This document shows, one piece after another, positions 29,331 to 40,149 of a stretch of 64,000 nt of DNA (its first letter is position 1; every line of letters starts with the position of its first letter). Where the stretch lies: positions 20,643 to 84,642 of the forward strand of contig CAWDYT010000008.1 of the NCBI GenBank assembly GCA_963806695.1. The letters run 5' to 3'. Both the position numbers and the translations under genes were made by a program. Source of the DNA: an uncultured Chloroflexia bacterium (GTDB lineage: Bacteria > Chloroflexota > Limnocylindria > QHBO01). A model generated the notes under the pieces. The model saw only the letters and a list, made by a program, of their open reading frames with translations. It did no database searches and was not told where the DNA came from.

Positions 29331-30144
29331 CCTCGGCCGCCTCCGCAGCCGGCCGGGTCGAGGCCGGCGGCCATCACGGCCGCGCGCGCCAGTCGCACGG
29401 CCGGCGGGCGGGGCGACGCCGAGCTCTCGGGAGGCGCGGATCGGCCAGCACCTCGGCGGCGGGACCGTCGAGCGCGATCGGCGCCCTCGACGAGCGACGA
29501 CGACGCGGCTGGCGACGGCGGCCAGCAGGTCCGTCTTCTGCTCGCGATCAGGATGCAGGCGCCGTCGGCCGGCCAGGCGGCCGATGGCTTCCGCCACGAG
29601 CGTCGTTCCCGGCCGGGTCGAGCTGCGCGGTCGGCTCGTCGAGGACGAGGTGCTCCGGCCGCATCGCGAGCAGGCCGGCGATGGCCACGAGCTGCTGCTG
29701 ACCGCCGGACAGCCGCGCGGATCGCGCTCGACCAGCGACTCGATGCGCAGGGCGACGACGGACTGCCACGTTCGTTCGCAGCGACCTCGTCGCGCGGCAG
29801 GCCGAGGTTCATCGGCCCGAACGCGATCTCCTCGAAGACGGTATCGGCCACCTGGCTGAGCTGCGTGGCCGGGTTCTGGAAGCCGATGCCGATCCGCTCC
29901 GCCAGTCGGTACATCGGCCAGGCGTCCACGTCCTCGCCGTCCAGCTCGATCGTCCCGCGGATGCGCCCGCCGATGGCGCGCGGCGCGAGACCGCTGACGA
30001 CGAGGCACAGCGTCGTCTTGCCCGCTTCCGAGGGACCCGCCAGCCCGACCACGTCGCCTCCGGCAGCTCGAGGTCGATGTCGAGCAGCGATGGGCGGCGA
30101 CGCCGGCGTACCGGTAGCCGACGCCCGAGAGCCGCAGCGGTCAT
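29327..30144 (-). CDS. ECF transporter ATPase A (indels)
   Basis: [36 protein letters not shown]. Confidence 0.82.
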
Positions 30145-30971
30145 GCGGCCCGACCCGCGCGATGCGCGCCACCATCAGCGCGACCAGCGCGACCACGAGC
30201 GCCCAGCGAACCACGGCCTCCACCGGGCGGTCCGCGGGCGTCCAGAGCAGGGTCCGCCGGCCGGGTCGAGTGAATCCGCGCGCCTCGAGGGCCATCGTCC
30301 GCTCCTCGACCTCGGCGATCGAGCCCAGGATCACCGGGCCCGACGATCGGCAGGATCCCGCGCACCCGACGCCAGACGGAGCCCTCGGTGTCGAGGCCGC
30401 GGGCGCGCTGCGCCGCGGTGATGTGCCCGGCCCGCTCGACCATGGCCGGCACCGTCTGGACCGACGCGTTGGCCACGAACGCGACCCGCGGGCTCACGCC
30501 GCGCCGCTCGAGGTCGACGACGAGGTCGCCGGGCCGGGTGGTCAGGTAGAAGAGGGTGATGGCGCCGCTGATGGCGACGATCCGGGCCAGGATCTCCAGG
30601 GCGAAGGCGAGCCCCTCGGCGGTCGCCGTGATCGGGCCGATCTGCAGCAGGACCGTCTCGCCGCCCGGAAAGAAGAAGAGGTTGACGAGGACCGCCGACA
30701 CGGCGATCGGCAGCGACAGCAGCAGGGTGGTCCGGATCAGGCGACCCAGCACGCCGGCGGCGATGGCCGGACCGATGACGGCGACGACCACGAGCACCGC
30801 CGGCCCGACCAGCCCACCGAGGACGACGGCGGCCAGCGCCGTCACGGTCGCCAGCGTCGCCTTCGTCAGCGGGTTGAGGCGGTGGAAGGCGCTCGGCCCG
30901 GGGGATGCGAGGAAGGCCGGGACGTCGCGGCCGGTCGCCGCGATCTCGCTCAGGCGGTCGCTCCCCGCCAC
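30141..30971 (-). CDS. ECF transmembrane T component (EcfT/CbiQ-like)
   Basis: FHRLNPLTK, AQRARGL, ALEARGF XRX motifs; possible GTG start at 30971 after GGAGGAGG; one indel near 30335. Confidence 0.8.
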   Translation of the reverse strand: MAGSDRLSEIAATGRDVPAFLASPGPSAFHRLNPLTKATLATVTALAAVVLGGLVGPAVLVVVAVIGPAIAAGVLGRLIRTTLLLSLPIAVSAVLVNLFFFPGGETVLLQIGPITATAEGLAFALEILARIVAISGAITLFYLTTRPGDLVVDLERRGVSPRVAFVANASVQTVPAMVERAGHITAAQRARGLDTEGSVWRRVRGILPIVGPGDPGLDRRGRGADDGPRGARIHSTRPADPALDARGPPGGGRGSLGARGRAGRADGGAHRAGRAA

Positions 30972-32054
30972 TCGCCCTCCTCCTCGGGCACGCGCCTCCT
31001 CCTCCTCGAACAGCCGCTCGCCCTGCGGGAAGCGTGCCTTCGTCCGTCGGGCCATGGCCGAGACGATGAGGTAGACGACGAAGAAGGTGGTGATCTTGTC
31101 GATCGGGTCGCTGATCAGGCCCTGGCCGAGCGTCGCGGCCCCGATGTCGGCACCTCCCTGGCGGAACGCCGCGACCAGGAAGTCCGTGCCGGAGCCGGTC
31201 ACGCCGCCGAACACGCCGGCCGCGATCGGGGCGCTGATCAGCGCCGCCACGATGCCCGTCACCATGCCGGTCACCACCACGTAGGTCGCGGTCAGGTCGC
31301 GCCGCACGATCAACAGCGCGAAGAGGCCGACGACGGTCGCGACCACCAGCGCCAGGGCGAGCCACCCGATGATCACGAAGATCGCGTTGTCGGAGGTCGG
31401 CGTCAGGCTGGTCGGCCCAAGGGCCGCGGTGTACCCGAGGTAGGCGAGGTACGCGAGCCCGCCCACCACCACGGCGGTGATCGCGCCGCCGATGAGCAGC
31501 TCGCGCGTCGGCCGGTTCGGGCGCGGCCGGAGCATTCCAAGCTGCCCCGCCACGCCGGCAAGCAGGCCGATCACCGCTGCCACGACCGCGAATGCGGCCG
31601 CCGGCGGATACTGGAACGGCGGGGGGATCACGTATGCCCACAGGACGTTGGCGAGCATCCCTGTCGCGGCTCCGGCAAGCGGACCGGCCAGCACGCCGAC
31701 CAGGATCGTCCCGATCGAGTCGAGGTAGATCGGGATCTTCAGGGCGGCGGCGACGGTCTGACCGAGGATGATGTTGAGGGCGATGGCGATCGGCATCAGG
31801 ATGAGCGTCCGTGTCGTGAACTGGCTTGTCACCGACGAGATGGTGCCGGTCTGAATCCGCTCGACGACCAGATAGACCGCGATCGCCACGAGGAGCGCCA
31901 CGCCGAGGGTGAGGGCCAGGACGTCGGCCACCGCCTGGTAGGCGAACGTGACCGGGTCTGCCTCACCGGCCTCCGGGATCCCTCCCGCCATGACGATGCC
32001 GGCGGCCACGACGACCACGAAGGCGACGAGGGTCGCGATCCATCGAACGAGCAT
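30950..32054 (-). CDS. ECF substrate-binding S component with extra TM helices (in frame with EcfT as sequenced)
   Basis: TLILMPIAIALNIILG, IPIYLDSIGTILVGVLAGP, FGGVTGSG, SDPIDK. Confidence 0.75.
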
Positions 32055-33081: not shown

Positions 33082-33987
33082 CTATGGTACGCGCCAGCCG
33101 CCGGCCTGACCGACCTTCGTGCTCAACGGCCGGCCGAGCGTGTCGGCCACGTGGCGCGCCGCGACGAGGAGCGCGTCGAGGTCGATGCCGTGCGACAGGC
33201 CCTCGCGGTCGAGCAGGTAGACGAGGTCCTCGCTGGCGAGGTTGCCCGCGGCGCCCGGGGCGTAGGGGCATCCGCCGGTTCCGCCGGTCGAGGAATCGAA
33301 GCAGCGCACGCCGAGCTCGAGGGCGGCCGAGACGTTGGCGAGGGCCGTCCCACGCGTGTCGTGGAAGTGCATGGCCAGCCGTTCGGGAGCGATCCCTGCG
33401 GCCGCAAGGGCGGCCACCACGCGTCGCACGTCCGCCGGACCGGCCACACCGATCGTGTCGCCGATGCTCAGCTCGTCGATGCCGAGCGCGACCAGCTCCC
33501 GCGCCACGCCGACCACCGCCGCCTCACCGACCTCGCCCTGGTAGGGGCAGCCGAAGGCGGTGCTGACATAGCCGCGCGTCCACCAGCCACGCACGCGCGC
33601 CCGTTCGACCACCGGGCGGAAGGCGTCGATCGACTCGGCGATGCTCATGTTGATGTTCGCGCGCGTGAAAGGCTCCGAGGCGGCCGTGAACACGCAGACC
33701 GCATCGGCTCCCGCGGCCTCGGCGCGATCCATGCCCCGGGCATTGGGGACGAGCACCGGGTAGCGGACGCCCGGTCGCCGATCCAGCCGCGCCATCAGCG
33801 CGTCCGCGTCCTCCAGCTGGGGGACCGCCTTGGGTGACACGAAACTGGTGGCCTCGATCTCGCGCAGCCCCGCGTCGGCGAGCAGATCAATGAACCGCAG
33901 CTTCGCGTCGGTCGGGATCTGGGTTGCCTCGTTCTGCAGGCCATCGCGCGGACCGACCTCGTAGACACGGACGTCGCGGTCGCTCAT
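33082..33987 (-). CDS. Hydroxymethylglutaryl-CoA lyase
   Basis: EVGPRDGLQNE, FVSPKAVPQ, HFHDTRG, GGCPYAPGAAGN. Confidence 0.95.
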   Translation of the reverse strand: MSDRDVRVYEVGPRDGLQNEATQIPTDAKLRFIDLLADAGLREIEATSFVSPKAVPQLEDADALMARLDRRPGVRYPVLVPNARGMDRAEAAGADAVCVFTAASEPFTRANINMSIAESIDAFRPVVERARVRGWWTRGYVSTAFGCPYQGEVGEAAVVGVARELVALGIDELSIGDTIGVAGPADVRRVVAALAAAGIAPERLAMHFHDTRGTALANVSAALELGVRCFDSSTGGTGGCPYAPGAAGNLASEDLVYLLDREGLSHGIDLDALLVAARHVADTLGRPLSTKVGQAGGWRVP

Positions 33988-36012
33988 GCGCCCGATTGTG
34001 CGACTTCGCCGACCAGGTCGCCGCGCTGGACCTGCTGGCCCACGTCGACCAGCAGCCGGACGAGCACTCCATCGATGGGTGCGACCACCGCGTGCTCCAT
34101 CTTCATGGCCTCGATCACGATCACCGCCTGGTGGGCCTGGACCGATGCGCCCTCGGCCACCCGGACCGCGATCACCCGTCCCGGCATCGGCGCGACGAGC
34201 ATCGCCGTCCCCTCATCGCCGGCTGACGCGGCATGCCGAACCGCCTCCTCCACCGTTGGGGCCGGCGCCGGAGCGAAGGACAGGCTCTGCCCGTCGACGT
34301 CGACGTGCGCCGTCGGCCCGTCGACCGCCGCGATCGCATCGGTCGCCACATCGCCTTCCTGCGGTACCTCGATCGACCGCTCGTCACCCTCCTGCACCAG
34401 CCGCTGCACCGGCGAGGCATTCAGACGCCAGCCACCGCCCCACGGGTCACCGGTGGCGGCGCCACGGAGCGCGCGGGCTGCGGCTCGCCAGTGCCGGTCC
34501 TCGATGGCGGGCGAGCCGGGCAGCGACATGCCGGCGATCGTGTCTGTCCGCATCTCGCCCTCGCGCATGACCGGCTGCTCGACGAGCCAGCGGAGGAAGC
34601 GAAGGTTCGTCCGGACGCCCAGGACCAGGGTCTCGGCGAGCGCGCGTCGCAGCCGTTCGACGGCGTCCTCGCGAGTCGCGCCGTGCGTGACGATCTTGGC
34701 CAGCATCGGGTCGTAGCGGTCGCTCACCTCGTCGCCCGCGGCCACGCCGGTGTCGACCCGCACCCCGTCCGGCCAGCGAACGGTCGCCAGCCTCCCGGTC
34801 GCCGGCAGGAACCCGCCCTCCGGATCCTCGGCATAGAGGCGCGCCTCGATCGCGTGTCCGCGGAGGTCCGGCGGGGCCGACAGGCCCAGCGCTCCGAGCG
34901 ATTCCCCGCCGGCGATTCGCAGCTGGTCCTCCACCAGGTCGCGTCCTGTCACCGCCTCGGTGACGGGGTGCTCGACCTGGAGGCGCGTGTTCATCTCGAG
35001 GAAGTAGAAGTCGCCCGAGTCGGCGAGCAGCATCTTCGACGGTGCCGGCGCTCACATAGCCGACCGCCTTCGCCACGGCCAGCGCCGCCTCCCCGAGGCG
35101 CCGGCGAAGCTCCGGGGTCACCGCTGGTGCCGGCGCCTCCTCGACGATCTTCTGGTTCCGCCGCTGGGCGCTGCAGTCGCGCTCGCCGAGGTGGACACCC
35201 GCTCCGTGCGCGTCGAACAGCACCTGCACCTCGACGTGACGCGACCCGCCCAGGTACTGCTCGAGCACGATCCGGTCGTCCCGGAACGACCGCGACGCCT
35301 CGCGGCGAGCGCCGCGCAGCGCCTCCGCCAGGTCCCCGGGCTCCGTCACCACGCGCATGCCCTTGCCGCCGCCACCGGCGGAGGGCTTGACCAGGACGGG
35401 GTAGCCGATGCGCGCTGCTTCGCGCGCCAGCCTTCCGTCGTCCTGCGCATCGCCGTCGTAGCCCGGGATCACCGCCACCCCGTGTGCGGCTGCGCGTTGC
35501 CGGGCCGCGGCCTTGTCGCCCATGGCCGCGATGGCGCCGGGCGGGGGGCCGACCCACACGAGGCCGGCGGCGCCCACCGATCGGGCGAAGTTCGCGTTCT
35601 CGGCGAGGAACCCGTACCCGGGATGGATCGCATCGGCTCCGGCGCGCTGCGCGACCGCCAGGATCTCGGCGGCGTCCAGGTACGAGCCGATGACGTGCGC
35701 CTCGTCCATCCCGGATGGCGGGCGCTCGTCCGCGGCATGGATGCCCACCACGCGAATGCCCAAGCGGCGGGCGGTCCTGGCCACTCGGACCGCGATCTCC
35801 CCACGGTTGGCGACGAGCAGGGCGCGAATCGGGGAGCGGGTCGCTTCGCCACCCCGTTCCGCCACGTTCGACAGCGACGAACGCGACACCCGCGCACGCG
35901 CTCCCACGCGGCGGGCCGGGAGCTTCCCTTCAGCGATCCAGCGCTGGACGGTCCGGACCGTCACCCCCAGCTCCGCTGCCACCTCCCGAGGGCTAAGCTC
36001 GTCGTCAGGCAT
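33984..36012 (-). CDS. Methylcrotonyl-CoA carboxylase alpha (biotin carboxylase plus biotinyl domain) with an N-terminal HTH_17/excisionase-like domain; one indel near 35035
   Basis: SPREVAAELGVTVRTVQRWIAEGKLPARRVG HTH, then LLVANRGEIA, HPGYGFLAEN, GGGGKGMR, FYFLEMNTRLQVEH, EAMKME. Confidence 0.9.
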
Positions 36013-36042
36013 GTCGCGATTGTCGCAGGTAGCGCCCGGCGG

Positions 36043-36834
36043 TCACGAGGTCCAGCGCGGCGGCCGCTTCTCCACGAACGCGGTCAGGCCTTCCTGTCCC
36101 TCCGCCGATGTCCGCTGCTGGGCGATGTGTCGCGGCGTGTGCCCGGCCGCCTCCTCCGGACCCAGCGTCCGGATCTCACGGACCAGCGACTTCGCAGCGC
36201 GGATCGCCGTCGGCCCCGCGGTGCGCAGCTCGCCGACCCATGCCGTGATCCGATCGTCCAGGGCCGCCTCGTCGGGAACGACCTCGTGCACGAGGCCGAT
36301 GCGCAGCGCGCGCGCGGCGTCGAAGCGCTGGCCGGCCGGGAACAGGGCGCGCGCATGGGACTCGCCGATCTTCGGGACGACGAACGTGCTGATGACCGCC
36401 GGGATGATGCCCAGCCTCGTCTCGGTGAAGCCGAAGGTCGCGTCGGCGGTGGCGACGACGACGTCGCTGACGGCGCACAGGCCCATCCCGCCCCCGAGCG
36501 CCGCGCCCTGCACGCGGGCAAGGACGGGCACCGGGCAGGCATCGATCGCGGCGAACATCGCCTGCATGGCCGCGGCGTCGCGCTCGTTGTCGTCGACGGA
36601 CAGGCCGATCGCCGCACGCATCCACTCGACGTCCGCGCCGGCGCAGAAGACCGGACCCTCCCCGGCGAGGACGACACCGCGCAGGGCGTCGGGCGGTTCG
36701 GTGGCCAGCGCCTCGAACGCGGCGCGCAGCTCGGCGATGACCGCCGCGTTGAACGCGTTCCGAACCTCCGGGCGCCAGAGGCGGACCCACGCCACGTCCG
36801 CGTCCCGCGTCACATGCACCGCGGTGCCACTCAC
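36043..36834 (-). CDS. Enoyl-CoA hydratase family (methylglutaconyl-CoA hydratase-like)
   Basis: RPEVRNAFN, FCAGAD, GAALGGGMGL, ETRLGIIPAVI, EGQEGLTAFVEKR; leucine-catabolism context. Confidence 0.9.
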   Translation of the reverse strand: MSGTAVHVTRDADVAWVRLWRPEVRNAFNAAVIAELRAAFEALATEPPDALRGVVLAGEGPVFCAGADVEWMRAAIGLSVDDNERDAAAMQAMFAAIDACPVPVLARVQGAALGGGMGLCAVSDVVVATADATFGFTETRLGIIPAVISTFVVPKIGESHARALFPAGQRFDAARALRIGLVHEVVPDEAALDDRITAWVGELRTAGPTAIRAAKSLVREIRTLGPEEAAGHTPRHIAQQRTSAEGQEGLTAFVEKRPPRWTS

Positions 36835-37649
36835 GGTGCCCGACCCCGGCGATGGAACGGCTCGCTGACGGCGCGAACCTGCCCGAGCAGTGGCTCCTCC
36901 AGCCACACCACGTCGGTCCCGTCGGGCACGTCGACGGTCGCGGACGCGCCGTTCGCGCCGACCAGCCCGAGCAGCAATCGGGAGCGGCCGCCGTCGTCGG
37001 ATTCCACCAGGTACGCGGCATCCACGCGCGTGTCGCGCAACGCCTCCGCCAGCTGTCGCTCGAGGTCACGCGTGTCGATGCTCGGCGGTCGGATGCGAAT
37101 CGAGGATCGCGCCGTCGGGCTGAAGAGTGGCTCGTCGTCGGAGCCGGGGACGCGCCCACCTGCCAGGGCCTCCAGCTCCTCCAGGTCGAAGCGGTAGGGC
37201 ACCGGGCCAGCCGGGTCCATGATCGCGGGCAGTCCGGCCGCGGCCAGGTTGGCGACCGCGATGCGAGCGGGCAGCGGCAGGTTGCCGGTGTGGGCCGGCG
37301 CCCACGCGGCGAGCGCGCCGACCGAGCCGAACACGACGCTCACCGGTCGCCCTTCGCCCTCCTGGGCGAGCATCACACTGATCTCGACCTGCTCGTCGTC
37401 GTTCACAGCCGATGCGAGCGCCGCCTTCGCCTCCTCGCCGTGCTCCGGCGGGACCGGGAGCAGCAGCGTGCCGCCCATCAGCACGCGGTAGAACTCGCGC
37501 AGCGCGCGTCGATCCCCGCCGCCACCCTCCTCGGCGTCTCGTGCGGCGAGCATGGCGTCGAACAGGTTGGCGGCGCTCTCCTCGAGGCTGCCGGACGGGA
37601 CGGATCGGTCGTGCGAGCCCGGAGCGGGGCGGTCGGCGGGCGATTGCAT
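36831..37649 (-). CDS. SseB-family-like protein
   Basis: TLLLPVP...VVFGSVGALAAW...AIMDPAGP and C-terminal VDAAYL...LLLGL; start chosen at MQSP. Confidence 0.6.
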   Translation of the reverse strand: MQSPADRPAPGSHDRSVPSGSLEESAANLFDAMLAARDAEEGGGGDRRALREFYRVLMGGTLLLPVPPEHGEEAKAALASAVNDDEQVEISVMLAQEGEGRPVSVVFGSVGALAAWAPAHTGNLPLPARIAVANLAAAGLPAIMDPAGPVPYRFDLEELEALAGGRVPGSDDEPLFSPTARSSIRIRPPSIDTRDLERQLAEALRDTRVDAAYLVESDDGGRSRLLLGLVGANGASATVDVPDGTDVVWLEEPLLGQVRAVSEPFHRRGRAP

Positions 37650-37689
37650 CGGTCCGGTGAGCCTACCGGATGCTGATAGCATCAGGTCC

Positions 37690-38481
37690 ATGATCCGGGG
37701 CATCGACCACCTTGTGATCGCCTGTGAGGATCCGGACGCCGCCGCAACGGAGCTCGAGGCAGCGCTCGGTGTCGTCAGCACGGGCGGCGGCCGCCATCCT
37801 GGCTCGGGCACGTGGAACCGGATCGCATGGCTCGCGGACGGGTCCTACCTCGAGCTGATCGGGGTGACCGATCCCGACGCGGCGCGGCAGAGCCCGGTCG
37901 GTGCGGCCGGCCTGCGAGCCCTCGACGAGGCGGGCGGCGGGCTGGCCACGTACGCGCTCCGCGTGGACGACCTCGACGCGACCGTGGCCGGTCTGCGGGC
38001 GGCCGGCTCCTCGTACGGCCCGCCCATCTTCGGGAGCCGGACCCGCGACGATGGCGAGGTCGTCGAGTGGTGGACATCGGTGCCCGAGGCACCGCTCGGT
38101 CCGACGATGCCGTTCCTCATCGAGCACGCCTATTTCGGCGTCGAGTGGGGCCCCGCGGCGCTTGGCGAGCGCGCGCTGTTCGCGCACCCGATCGGGTCGC
38201 CGGTGGTGCTGGTGCGGCTCGACCTCGCCTCCGTGGATCCACCGTCGCTGGCCGCCGACCTGCACCAGGAGCTGGAGCTCGACTTCTGGGCCGTGGCCGA
38301 TCTCGCGGTGGCCGACGTCGGACCGCACGTCATCCGCCTCGTCCCGCGCCGCGAAGTGCCGCTCCCGGCGGTCGTCACGCTCGGAGCCGCGGTCGAGACA
38401 CCTCGGACAGCCGAGGTGCTCGAATTGCGCCTCGACGTCGAGGTCGTCGACCTGCCGGTGCCGGTGCCCTTCCCGGCCTAG
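37690..38481 (+). CDS. VOC (glyoxalase-3-like) protein
   Basis: IDHLVIAC, GGRHPGSGTWNRI, YLELIG, PFLIEH. Confidence 0.85.
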   Translation: MIRGIDHLVIACEDPDAAATELEAALGVVSTGGGRHPGSGTWNRIAWLADGSYLELIGVTDPDAARQSPVGAAGLRALDEAGGGLATYALRVDDLDATVAGLRAAGSSYGPPIFGSRTRDDGEVVEWWTSVPEAPLGPTMPFLIEHAYFGVEWGPAALGERALFAHPIGSPVVLVRLDLASVDPPSLAADLHQELELDFWAVADLAVADVGPHVIRLVPRREVPLPAVVTLGAAVETPRTAEVLELRLDVEVVDLPVPVPFPA

Positions 38482-38527: not shown

Positions 38528-40126
38528 TCACATCCGATAGAGGCTGAACCCCGGCTCGGGAATCGGCGCGTTCAGGGCGGCGGAGATCCCGAGAGCGAGC
38601 ACCCGCCGCGTGTCCAGCGGATCGATGACCCCGTCGTCCCAGAGGCGCGCCGTGGAGTGGTAGGGCGAGCCCTCGCGTTCGTACTTGTCCAGGATCGACG
38701 CCTCGAAGGCGTCGCGCTCCGCATCGGTGTCGAAGCCTCCGCGCACGGTCGACAGGACACGCGCGGCTTGCTGCCCGCCCATGACGCTGATCCGGGCGTT
38801 GGGCCACATCCAGAGCTGGCGCGGGCCGTACGCGCGTCCGGCCATACCGTAGTTCCCGGCGCCGAAGCTGCCGCCGATGATGACGGTGAACTTCGGCACG
38901 TTCGTGGTGCTCACCGCCGTGACCAGCTTGGCGCCATCCCGGGCGATGCCGCCCGCCTCGTACTCGCGGCCCACCATGAAGCCGGTGATGTTCTGGAGGA
39001 AGACGAGTGGGATGCGCCGTTGCGAGGCGAGCTCGACGAAATGCGCTCCCTTCAGCGCCGACTGGCTGAACAGGATGCCGTTGTTGGCGAGGATGCCGAT
39101 CGGCTGGCCCATGATCCGCGCGAAGCCGCACACCAGCGTCTCGCCGTACCGCTGCTTGAACTCGTGGAACTCGCTCGCATCGACCAGTCGCGCGATCACC
39201 TCGCGAACGTCGTAGGCCTGGCGCGCGTCGGCCGGGACGACGCCGTACAGGTCCGCCTCGGCCACGTCGGGGTCCGCCGGCGGGGCGACGTCCCACGGTG
39301 GGTCGGGCCGGCGCCGCGCGAGGTTCCGGACGATCTCGCGACCGATGGCCAGCGCGTGCTCGTCGTCGAGGGCGTAGTGATCGGCTACGCCAGACTGCAC
39401 CGTGTGCACCTCGGCGCCGCCCAGCTCCTCTGCGCTCACGACTTCGCCGGTCGCCGCCTGCACGAGCGGCGGGCCTCCGAGGAAGATCGTTCCGGTGCCC
39501 CTGACGATCACCGTCTCGTCGGACATGGCCGGCACGTACGCGCCGCCCGCCGTGCAGGAGCCCATCACCAGCGCGACCTGAGGGATGCGGCGGGCCGAGA
39601 GCTGCGCCTGGTTGTAGAAGATCCGCCCGAAGTGCTCGCGGTCGGGAAAGACCTCGTCCTGGAGTGGCAGGAAGGCACCGCCCGAGTCGACGAGGTACAG
39701 GCACGGCAGGTGGTTCTCCAGCGCGACCTCCTGGGCACGGAGGTGCTTCTTCACCGTCATCGGATAGTAGGTGCCGCCCTTGACGGTGGCGTCGTTCGCC
39801 ACGATGACGCACTCGCCGCCCTCGATCCGACCGACGCCGGTCACGATCCCGGCCCCCGGAGCCTCGTCGTCGTAGAGGTCCGTAGCGGCCAGGGCATTCA
39901 GCTCCAGAAACGCGCTTCCCGGGTCGAGCAGGCGATCGATCCGTTCCCGTACCGGCAGCTTGCCGCGCTCGCGGTGGCGATCGATCGACCGGTCGTCACC
40001 CGCGGCACCCCGCGCGCTCAGCGCCCGATGCCTGGACCGCAGGTCGTCGACGAGCGCGCGCATCGCCTCGGCGTTGGCGCGCGTGGATGGGCTGGTCGGG
40101 TCGAGCTCGCTGCGCAGGACGGCCAT
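38528..40126 (-). CDS. Methylcrotonyl-CoA carboxylase beta (carboxyltransferase)
   Basis: [54 protein letters not shown]. Confidence 0.95.
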
Positions 40127-40149
40127 CGCCGTCGATTATCGCCGCGCGA

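Follow-up and report, generated by a model that had tools for sequence, protein, structure and literature searches.

Biotin-dependent carboxylases are large and well-studied oligomers, and we know of no enzyme among them that doubles as a transcription factor. Enzyme-repressors such as BirA (a group II biotin protein ligase and the repressor of the bio operon), PutA, and NadR are classic examples of direct metabolic feedback, and the liu genes of Proteobacteria are regulated by LiuR, a separate protein of the MerR family with a coiled-coil dimerization and effector domain. Here we describe a gene in a stretch of 64,000 nucleotides (hereafter called the window) on contig CAWDYT010000008.1 of a bacterium in Limnocylindria, a class of uncultured bacteria from soil and freshwater. 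The gene encodes the alpha subunit of 3-methylcrotonyl-CoA carboxylase (MCC) with a winged helix-turn-helix (HTH) domain at its N terminus, and an invariant DNA element, to which this domain may bind, is located directly before its start codon. Such a fusion would widen the known class of enzyme-repressors.

In BirA, an N-terminal winged HTH and an enzyme are arranged in one chain (PMC4016012). The protein examined here is similar to BirA, PutA, and NadR in that an HTH and a metabolic enzyme share one chain and that the candidate operator lies on a promoter of the same pathway; by analogy, the logic might also be the same, namely that the state of the enzyme itself is sensed. The differences are in the type of the HTH, which is HTH_17/MerR-like here but the BirA-type winged HTH in BirA and a ribbon-helix-helix in PutA, in the enzyme, which is a carboxylase subunit of an alpha6-beta6 complex, and in the target, because the sole target supported is the promoter of the gene itself. 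As in the case of LiuR, an HTH of the MerR superfamily is tied to the control of leucine-catabolic genes, but only the winged HTH is present and the remaining polypeptide is the enzyme. Compared with known MCC alpha subunits (MccA/LiuD; Pseudomonas aeruginosa 3u9s and human MCCC1), the biotin carboxylase (BC), BT, and BCCP (biotin carboxyl carrier protein) parts follow in the same order; the partner is likewise a carboxyltransferase (CT) of the MCC-beta type, and a liu-like cluster with enoyl-CoA hydratase (ECH) and 3-hydroxy-3-methylglutaryl (HMG)-CoA lyase is also shared. What is added is the N-terminal winged HTH and a linker, about 60 residues in total.

The fused protein and its DNA-binding domain

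A sequence-only reading of this DNA had proposed that the first ~50 residues form an HTH_17/excisionase/BldC-like domain that runs in frame into a BC, and both parts of the proposal hold. In ORF A, the first of the two open reading frames (ORFs) into which the gene is split, the Pfam family HTH_17 (PF12728) matches residues 6-52 (E 3.6e-12, 46.8 bits versus a cut-off of 27), and the NCBIfam model TIGR01764 ("excise") also scores above its cut-off (41.4 versus 28.8); Biotin_carb_N then follows at residues 62-161 and the ATP-grasp domain at residues 166-326. ORF B continues with PF02786, PF02785 (Biotin_carb_C), and PF00364 (Biotin_lipoyl, E 8.6e-16). The glycine-rich loop GGGGKGM, EMNTRLQVEHPVTE, and EAMKME are all present in these two halves, and the gene therefore has a BC domain with the glycine-rich loop and catalytic motifs as well as a BT region with a C-terminal BCCP carrying the biotinyl-lysine (AMKM); its reading frame is broken in the window's genome by a 1-nt insertion. 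The closest intact homologue (P0001, 672 residues) aligns over its residues 62-667 with the alpha subunit of P. aeruginosa MCC (3u9s) at 504 bits, and this alignment extends to residue 650, covering the BT region and BCCP. Because the neighbours are an MCC-beta-type CT, an ECH, and an HMG-CoA lyase, that is, a partner subunit in a leucine-catabolic context, the fused gene is assigned to MCC alpha. Judging from these motifs and neighbours, the gene encodes an MCC alpha subunit whose catalytic parts look intact, with a tethered HTH. A second, ordinary BC paralogue of the acetyl-CoA carboxylase/propionyl-CoA carboxylase (ACC/PCC) type is found on another contig of the same genome (L002, G000:C4:29595-29777), and the fused gene is thus not the sole BC.

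Between the HTH and the BC of the window gene, there is neither a stop codon nor an ATG, and the single in-frame GTG is found at V50. The codon at this position in 30 relatives is GTC (16), GTG (9), GTT (3), ATC (1), or GTA (1), and 11 of the 30 have no in-frame start codon at all in the linker. We hence rejected translation of an HTH-less isoform from an internal start; with no start codon conserved between the two parts, such an isoform would not be a conserved feature.

The model of the HTH by AlphaFold2 (AF2), with a predicted local distance difference test (pLDDT) score of 81, is composed of helices 8-15 and 19-28, strands 33-36 and 39-43, and helix 44-54 (H-H-E-E-H), namely the two helices, beta-hairpin wing, and C-terminal helix of a winged helix. 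Foldseek matched this model to Xis of phage Pukovnik with template modeling (TM) scores of 0.78-0.80, BldC-DNA with 0.76-0.78, and RacA-DNA with 0.74, and also to RdfS and the DNA-binding domains of SoxR/MerR. When an HTH profile was compared with solved structures, the same three proteins were found: Pukovnik Xis (E 4.4e-9), Bacillus subtilis RacA (6.5e-7), and Streptomyces BldC (2e-4). Pukovnik Xis (4j2n; 43% identity) is therefore the closest solved relative, but the alpha locus has no integrase, attachment site, or mobile-element context as would be found with excisionases and recombination directionality factors, and the HTH is inherited vertically together with a housekeeping catabolic gene. 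When the nearest intact homologue was modeled in full length (mean pLDDT of 89.6), residues 51-60 formed a coil with a pLDDT of 57, from which the HTH is predicted to be a flexibly tethered module. There is no C-terminal coiled coil; one short helix after the wing is followed by the coil linker and then by the BC. Among the relatives of the HTH, we also noticed proteins with tandem HTH_17 domains (four to seven domains in 480-700 residues; P0135, P0149, P0157, P0162, and P0238), of which P0238 scores 164 bits against PF12728.

In the window's own family (f1) and the second family that carries the fusion (f3), residues R20, V22, Q23, R24, W25, G29, and G37 are invariant, and so are the recognition helix RT/SVQRW and the arginines of the wing. 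Our alignments place R20 and R24 at the positions of RacA Lys15 and Arg19, and R24 also at that of BldC Arg30, all of which read bases in the complexes with DNA (PMC4914108, PMC5859096). It might be considered that the HTH no longer binds DNA and instead mediates contacts between proteins, for instance to assemble the holoenzyme, to form filaments, or to recruit a partner. Indeed, domains of the Xis, BldC, and RdfS type oligomerize via the same fold (PMC5859096), MCCs form higher-order assemblies (PMC12776079), and the HTH is here attached to one of the subunits of a large oligomeric enzyme. We nonetheless regard this as improbable, since the equivalents of the base-reading residues, the recognition helix, and the wing arginines are invariant, and since it would leave unexplained the invariant DNA element described below, which came and went together with the HTH.

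The sequence-only reading further stated that no characterized BC is known to carry a DNA-binding domain, and we agree with this statement in that we found no paper or solved structure describing such a domain on a BC and no solved BC chain that covers residues 1-58. The "helix-turn-helix" mentioned in a preprint on Legionella MCC refers to a structural motif in the beta subunit and has no relation to this domain.

Distribution and origin of the fusion

For examining how widely the fusion is distributed, residues 1-100 were used as the query of a homologue search, in which 763 proteins were found and the best 120 were inspected; we also compared 201 genomes of Limnocylindria, which include f1, f3, and the sister family (f2). 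All of the best 120 homologues have HTH_17 and BC in one chain, which bears out the domain architecture, and most of them are full-length proteins of ~660-690 residues with BCCP; identities over the first 100 residues are 65-80%. The homologues with names are from metagenome-assembled genomes (MAGs) of Candidatus Limnocylindria/Chloroflexota. In JGI, however, they are often named merely "excisionase family DNA binding protein," and this name given by the pipeline hides a core catabolic enzyme. Among the 201 genomes, an uninterrupted match to the first 100 residues is found in about 66 of 66 f1 genomes, and the junction of HTH and BC is also continuous, with 50-58% identity, in most MCC-bearing genera of f3; genomes of f2 and f4 match the BC part alone. 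In 1.84 billion representative proteins, only 65 were hit at E <= 1e-10, and every one with HTH and BC that we checked belongs to this fused family. As candidates for fusions outside the class, apparent long matches were obtained in Pseudomonas botevensis (L007), Piscinibacter (L037), and others, but these have no HTH; a scan of genome contigs for such fusions was swamped by the universal LL[IV]ANRGEI pattern.

If relatives encoded the HTH as a separate gene, the fusion in the window would be suspect. Candidates for this arrangement in f2, where the match ran through stop codons, turned out to belong to another BC paralogue, of the ACC/PCC type, with a CT gene in front of it; the true MCC alpha of f2 has no HTH and begins directly at ..LVANRGEI. 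The HTH is hence not separately encoded in these relatives. As far as can be judged from these comparisons, the fusion is not a product of chance or of gene calling, and an artefact at the junction is very unlikely because the fusion is conserved across hundreds of relatives.

In a maximum-likelihood tree built on the BC region, the alpha subunits of f1, the fused ones of f3, and one unfused gene of f3 (genome G134) form one clade (support 92/79), within which G134 is nested in the fused f3 group (support 100/97); the unfused alpha subunits of f2 and of genome G188 are the sister clade. This topology shows that the fusion arose once, in the common ancestor of the two families of Limnocylindria, and that it was secondarily lost once in our sample. 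Column conservation in 110 full-length homologues is 0.87 in the HTH, which is thus the most conserved domain of the protein, 0.80-0.84 in the BC domains, 0.75 in BCCP, and 0.40 in the linker, the length of which differs among relatives (8-25 residues). By this measure, the fusion is shown to be kept under strong purifying selection. We also observed that the glycine-rich ATP loop reads GGGGIGM in the unfused alpha subunits of f2 (L198-L202) and GGGGKGM in the fused clade.

The element before the start codon

The alpha start codon is directly preceded by GCGACAATCGCGAC, which is invariant in 35 distinct upstream sequences of f1. In these sequences, the information content is about 2 bits at each position of CTGCGACAATCGCGAC, which is followed by ATG or GTG, and about 0 bits in the 20 nt farther upstream, and the element is unchanged regardless of which gene lies upstream. 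A clue to this conserved DNA was provided by homologues in the database with mis-extended N termini, all of which read "CDNRD." The element occurs once in the window, and no other exact copy is found in the genome. Its core, CGACAATCGCG, is kept in f3, and every fused gene in the two families starts behind the same element (CTGCGACAATCGCGAC-ATG in f1). The f3 form of the core, (n)GCGACAATCGCG(A/C/T)C, is located 1-5 nt before the start, in most cases with TTGCnn 17 nt in front of it; in the basal subgroup of f3, it reads GCGACAAACG(C/T)GACATT. We infer that GACAAT (36024-36019) is a -10 box, extended in f1 by TG (36027-36026) and placed 6-10 nt before the start codon, a distance that suggests a leaderless or near-leaderless mRNA. 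In one gene of an f3 genus (L120, G155:C117, genus g39), two copies of ATGCGCGACAATCGCG are found 26 nt apart before the start, where the candidate operator appears to be duplicated.

The element was present wherever the HTH was present and was absent from all unfused relatives. In f2, the stop codon of ECH overlaps the alpha start (GTGA), and alpha, which has neither HTH nor motif, is translationally coupled to the upstream gene, whereas the fused gene has its own leaderless-type promoter with the invariant element. In G188, the unfused alpha directly follows MCC beta and is again without the motif. The alpha gene of G134, which is descended from fused ancestors, has lost both the HTH and the motif, and yet keeps a leaderless-type promoter, gggacTAGGATgcgggcGTG. 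From these three comparisons, the HTH and the element appear to have been gained together at the junction of ECH and alpha and to have been lost together in one case.

The gene of MCC beta offers an internal control, as it also starts 7-10 nt after a -10 box; this further suggests that leaderless or near-leaderless mRNAs may be common in the lineage. Among relatives, only the hexamer of this promoter is kept, and its flanks drift: the variants in f1 (GGCGATAATCGAC, GGCCGATAATCGG, and GGGCCATAATCGG) differ from those in f3 (CCTATCATC and CCTATCCTT), and the motif of alpha is absent. The hexamer itself is GATAAT or CATAAT in f1 and TATCAT, TATCCT, or TATGAT in f3 (window, L003-L005, L165/L166, and L120-L139). 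We take this drift as what the conservation of an ordinary promoter looks like at this divergence. In our reading, the invariant non-consensus positions of the -10 box and the discriminator of alpha then exceed the needs of a promoter.

Taken together, our preferred reading, to which we assign a probability of roughly one half, is that MCC alpha uses its HTH to bind the element at the -10 box and transcription start (+1) of its own gene and represses the operon of alpha and HMG-CoA lyase. The HTH of the gene's own product would bind upstream of the start, probably as two or more head-to-tail copies on 9-bp repeats of GCGAC in the manner of BldC, and this would block RNA polymerase and result in negative autoregulation of the operon. 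The loop could match the synthesis of alpha to need, with free or excess (i.e., unassembled) alpha as the likely repressor; since MCC beta has a transcription unit of its own, with an ordinary promoter that lacks the motif, it may be the supply of alpha that is tuned. BldC of Streptomyces, the founding small MerR-like winged-HTH regulator, oligomerizes head-to-tail, each protomer occupying a 9-bp direct repeat, AATTxxxx(C) (PMC5859096). Besides the similarity in fold and profile and the conserved equivalent of Arg30, the candidate operator CTGCGACAATCGCGACATG, which carries the GCGAC units, can be read in f1 as two direct repeats with a 9-bp period, GCGACAATC and GCGACATG, and AATCGCGAC fits the AATTxxxx(C) pattern (PMC5859096). 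BldC is, however, a free-standing protein of 68 residues with a developmental regulon and AT-rich sites, while the HTH here is fused to an enzyme of about 610 residues and the candidate site is GC-rich. Classical MerR proteins differ as well: they have a C-terminal coiled coil/effector domain and an operator inside a promoter spacer of 19-20 bp, whereas the spacers of the f3 promoters are 17 nt, and the element described here overlaps the -10 box and +1.

Several observations weigh against autoregulation through this element. A scan with the strict sigma-70 consensus called no promoter at the element, and our promoter call thus rests on comparative evidence. The second of the two units is degenerate in f3 (GCGCC, GCGTC), which makes the direct repeat weaker there, and an inverted repeat, GCGA-caa-TCGC, describes the f3 core equally well. 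Also, the part A[CT]AATCG of the motif is found at the MCC-beta promoter of f1, so that some of the conservation of the alpha motif may reflect the promoter style of the lineage. The co-loss of HTH and motif rests on a single genome, G134, and the copy of alpha in the window itself is frameshifted. Finally, the HTH and the motif may have arrived as one cassette, in which case their co-occurrence could be historical and not functional.

Two alternatives were considered. The element might be merely a specialized leaderless promoter, with the HTH binding DNA elsewhere, either in a RacA-like association with the nucleoid of low specificity or at, for example, the GCGACA arrays upstream of gyrA that are described below. 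This would be consistent with the well-placed extended -10 box and a spacing to ATG that suits a leaderless start, with the same promoter layout and shared A[CT]AATCG of the MCC-beta gene, and with RacA, the second-best relative in sequence, binding DNA both specifically and non-specifically (PMC4914108). It is rather doubtful, nonetheless, given that neither the non-consensus -10 positions nor any part of the discriminator varies at a divergence where the flanks of MCC beta are randomized, that f3 retains the CGCG behind the -10 box in spite of the variable distance to ATG, that G134 has lost the motif along with the HTH although its promoter is still of the leaderless type, and that the gyrA arrays are missing from the fused genomes of f3 and from the window's own genome. 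Alternatively, the element might be recognized by another regulator, as its operator, or by an alternative sigma factor, and co-occur with the HTH only because a small autoregulated HTH gene was inserted as one cassette between ECH and alpha. The coupled ECH and alpha of f2 (GTGA) would support this idea, because the motif and HTH of f1 sit exactly at that junction, as an insertion predicts. We consider it very improbable, however; an autoregulated cassette would leave the element as the operator of the HTH itself, most genomes of f1 have no other close paralogue of the HTH, and the lack of a conserved -35 box in f1 argues against a sigma factor of the extracytoplasmic function type.

The sequence-only reading had gone further and proposed a trigger enzyme that couples leucine catabolism or the state of biotinylation to transcription. 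What stands is that an enzyme and a DNA-binding domain are conserved in one chain and that a candidate operator, gained and lost with the HTH, is present at the start of its own gene. With respect to targets across the leucine pathway, on the other hand, the MCC-beta promoter is without the motif, and only the promoter of alpha itself is supported as a candidate target. A coupling of DNA binding to methylcrotonyl-CoA, the biotinylation state, or holoenzyme assembly is pure inference. It is conceivable but quite unlikely that the carboxylase subunit is a sequence-specific transcription factor reporting the enzyme's state of assembly or activity; free or idle alpha would then bind over its own leaderless promoter in the BldC-like manner, its incorporation into alpha6-beta6 or the turnover of substrate would alter the geometry or avidity of the tethered HTHs and set the expression of alpha and HMG-CoA lyase, and the gyrA arrays would perhaps also be occupied in some genera. 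If autoregulation by alpha proved true, it would represent a new architecture for autoregulation at the level of a subunit, extend the head-to-tail binding mode of the BldC/Xis type to an enzyme fusion, and give a first regulatory element and promoter type (leaderless, with a GACAAT -10 box) for Limnocylindria. For an uncultured lineage, this candidate is unusually well defined, with a 50-residue domain of confident fold and an invariant site of 14-19 bp, and natural controls are available in the sister lineages without the domain and in the one secondary loss.

Other readings and sites were set aside. A reading of the element as an RNA hairpin (GCGA-caa-UCGC) would involve a stem of just 4 bp, and transcription probably starts downstream of the element. 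In searching for a regulon with near-copies of the motif, the recurrent sites GCGACATTCGCGAC turned out to lie within the coding sequence of gyrA (ITDVSDIRDESDR); the string GCGACACTCGCGAC of genus g4, considered as an operator, was coding sequence of ECH, and a search for the 12-mer with one mismatch in f3 genomes was uninformative as it was swamped by a common coding string, GCGACGATCGCG.

Apart from these coding matches, at least 16 of the 53 f1 genomes have intergenic arrays of two to four tandem 9-bp units, GCGACAnAC, just upstream of gyrA. An example is GCGACATAC GCGACATAC GCGACAGAC GCGACAAGG, and the relatives with such arrays are L164 (G012:C1:~583499-583531), L163, L158-L162, and L168. 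The arrays are absent from f2, f3, f4, and the gyrA region of the window's own genome (C5). They may serve the HTH as a second target or be the target of another factor, but we leave them as unexplained because they do not track the fusion.

Layout of the locus and the frame of this copy

The features discussed above are listed in Table 1.

Table 1. Features of the fused MCC alpha gene and its surroundings, in positions of the window
Feature	Position	Strand	Details
MCC alpha gene with N-terminal HTH (HTH, linker, BC, BT, BCCP)	33984..36012	(-)	Split into ORF A and ORF B
ORF A	36012..34447	(-)	Translation starts MPDDELSPREVAAELGVTVRTVQRWIAEGKLPARRVGARARVSRSSLSNVAERGGEATRSPIRALLVANRGEIA
ORF B	35033..33984	(-)	Remainder of ATP-grasp, Biotin_carb_C, BT region, BCCP with biotinyl-lysine motif EAMKME
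Winged helix-turn-helix, MerR-like/excisionase type, residues 6-52	35857..35997	(-)	Pfam PF12728, TIGR01764, AF2 model, Foldseek
Variable flexible linker, about residues 53-61	35830..35856	(-)	Column conservation, full-length model
BC N-domain and first part of ATP-grasp, residues 62-326, including GGGGKGM	35035..35829	(-)	PF00289, PF02786
1-nt insertion (AA where relatives have A)	35035..35036	(-)	Comparison with relatives
Invariant element CTGCGACAATCGCGAC, candidate operator	36013..36028	(-)	Directly before ATG
HMG-CoA lyase	33082..33987	(-)	NCBIfam NF004283, 392.8 versus cut-off 246; start overlaps alpha stop (ATGA)
ECH (methylglutaconyl-CoA hydratase-like)	36043..36906	(-)	Pfam ECH_1, E 1.2e-50; immediately upstream of alpha
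CT, MCC beta type	38528..40126	(-)	Separate transcription unit
Promoter-like GGCGATAATCGACGGCG, internal control	40127..40143	(-)	Directly before MCC-beta ATG

The only indel of the gene had been placed ~800 nt past the junction of HTH and BC in the sequence-only reading, and we located the frame break ~780 nt downstream, after residue 326, where the window reads GTCGAAGATGCTG and the nearest relative GTCGAGATGCTG. At the nucleotide level, GTCGAAGATG in the window stands against GTCGAGATG in L083, and homologues read GTVEMLL at this site. The extra A is probably an assembly indel. As given, the sequence is out of frame, and the gene would be a true pseudogene if the insertion were genuine; we regard this as unlikely, because the extra base falls within a short run of A, both halves are otherwise intact and conserved with all three motifs retained, and the score of the window's MAG (2.14 Mb, 23 contigs), only 56.65% complete, is consistent with broken marker genes. 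Lone frameshifts in the same gene are also found on long contigs of other MAGs of the clade (P0010, P0011, P0020, P0055, and P0086) and likewise in G054, G074, and G197.

The overlap of its start with the alpha stop codon assigns HMG-CoA lyase to the operon of alpha, and this gene always comes after the fused gene in f1 and f3. Of the NCBIfam models, crotonase and gamma-carboxygeranoyl-CoA hydratase fit the ECH best, with scores under the respective cut-offs. Among solved structures, the CT is closest to the beta subunit of P. aeruginosa MCC (3u9r, 759 bits), followed by the beta subunits of geranyl-CoA carboxylase (GCC; 433 bits) and PCC (about 260 bits). The order CT, ECH, HTH-alpha, and HMG-CoA lyase is kept in both f1 and f3. 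Between MCC beta and ECH (36831-38481), the window has a gene with a Glyoxalase_3 domain (37552-38481, plus strand) and an SseB-like gene (37811..36831, minus strand), both of which are conserved within the liu-like cluster of f1. Farther along the window, an ORF of 637 residues (30141-32054, minus strand) has a CbiQ domain, i.e., the T component of an energy-coupling factor (ECF) transporter, only in its C-terminal third, and the ORF may combine this domain with a membrane S component.

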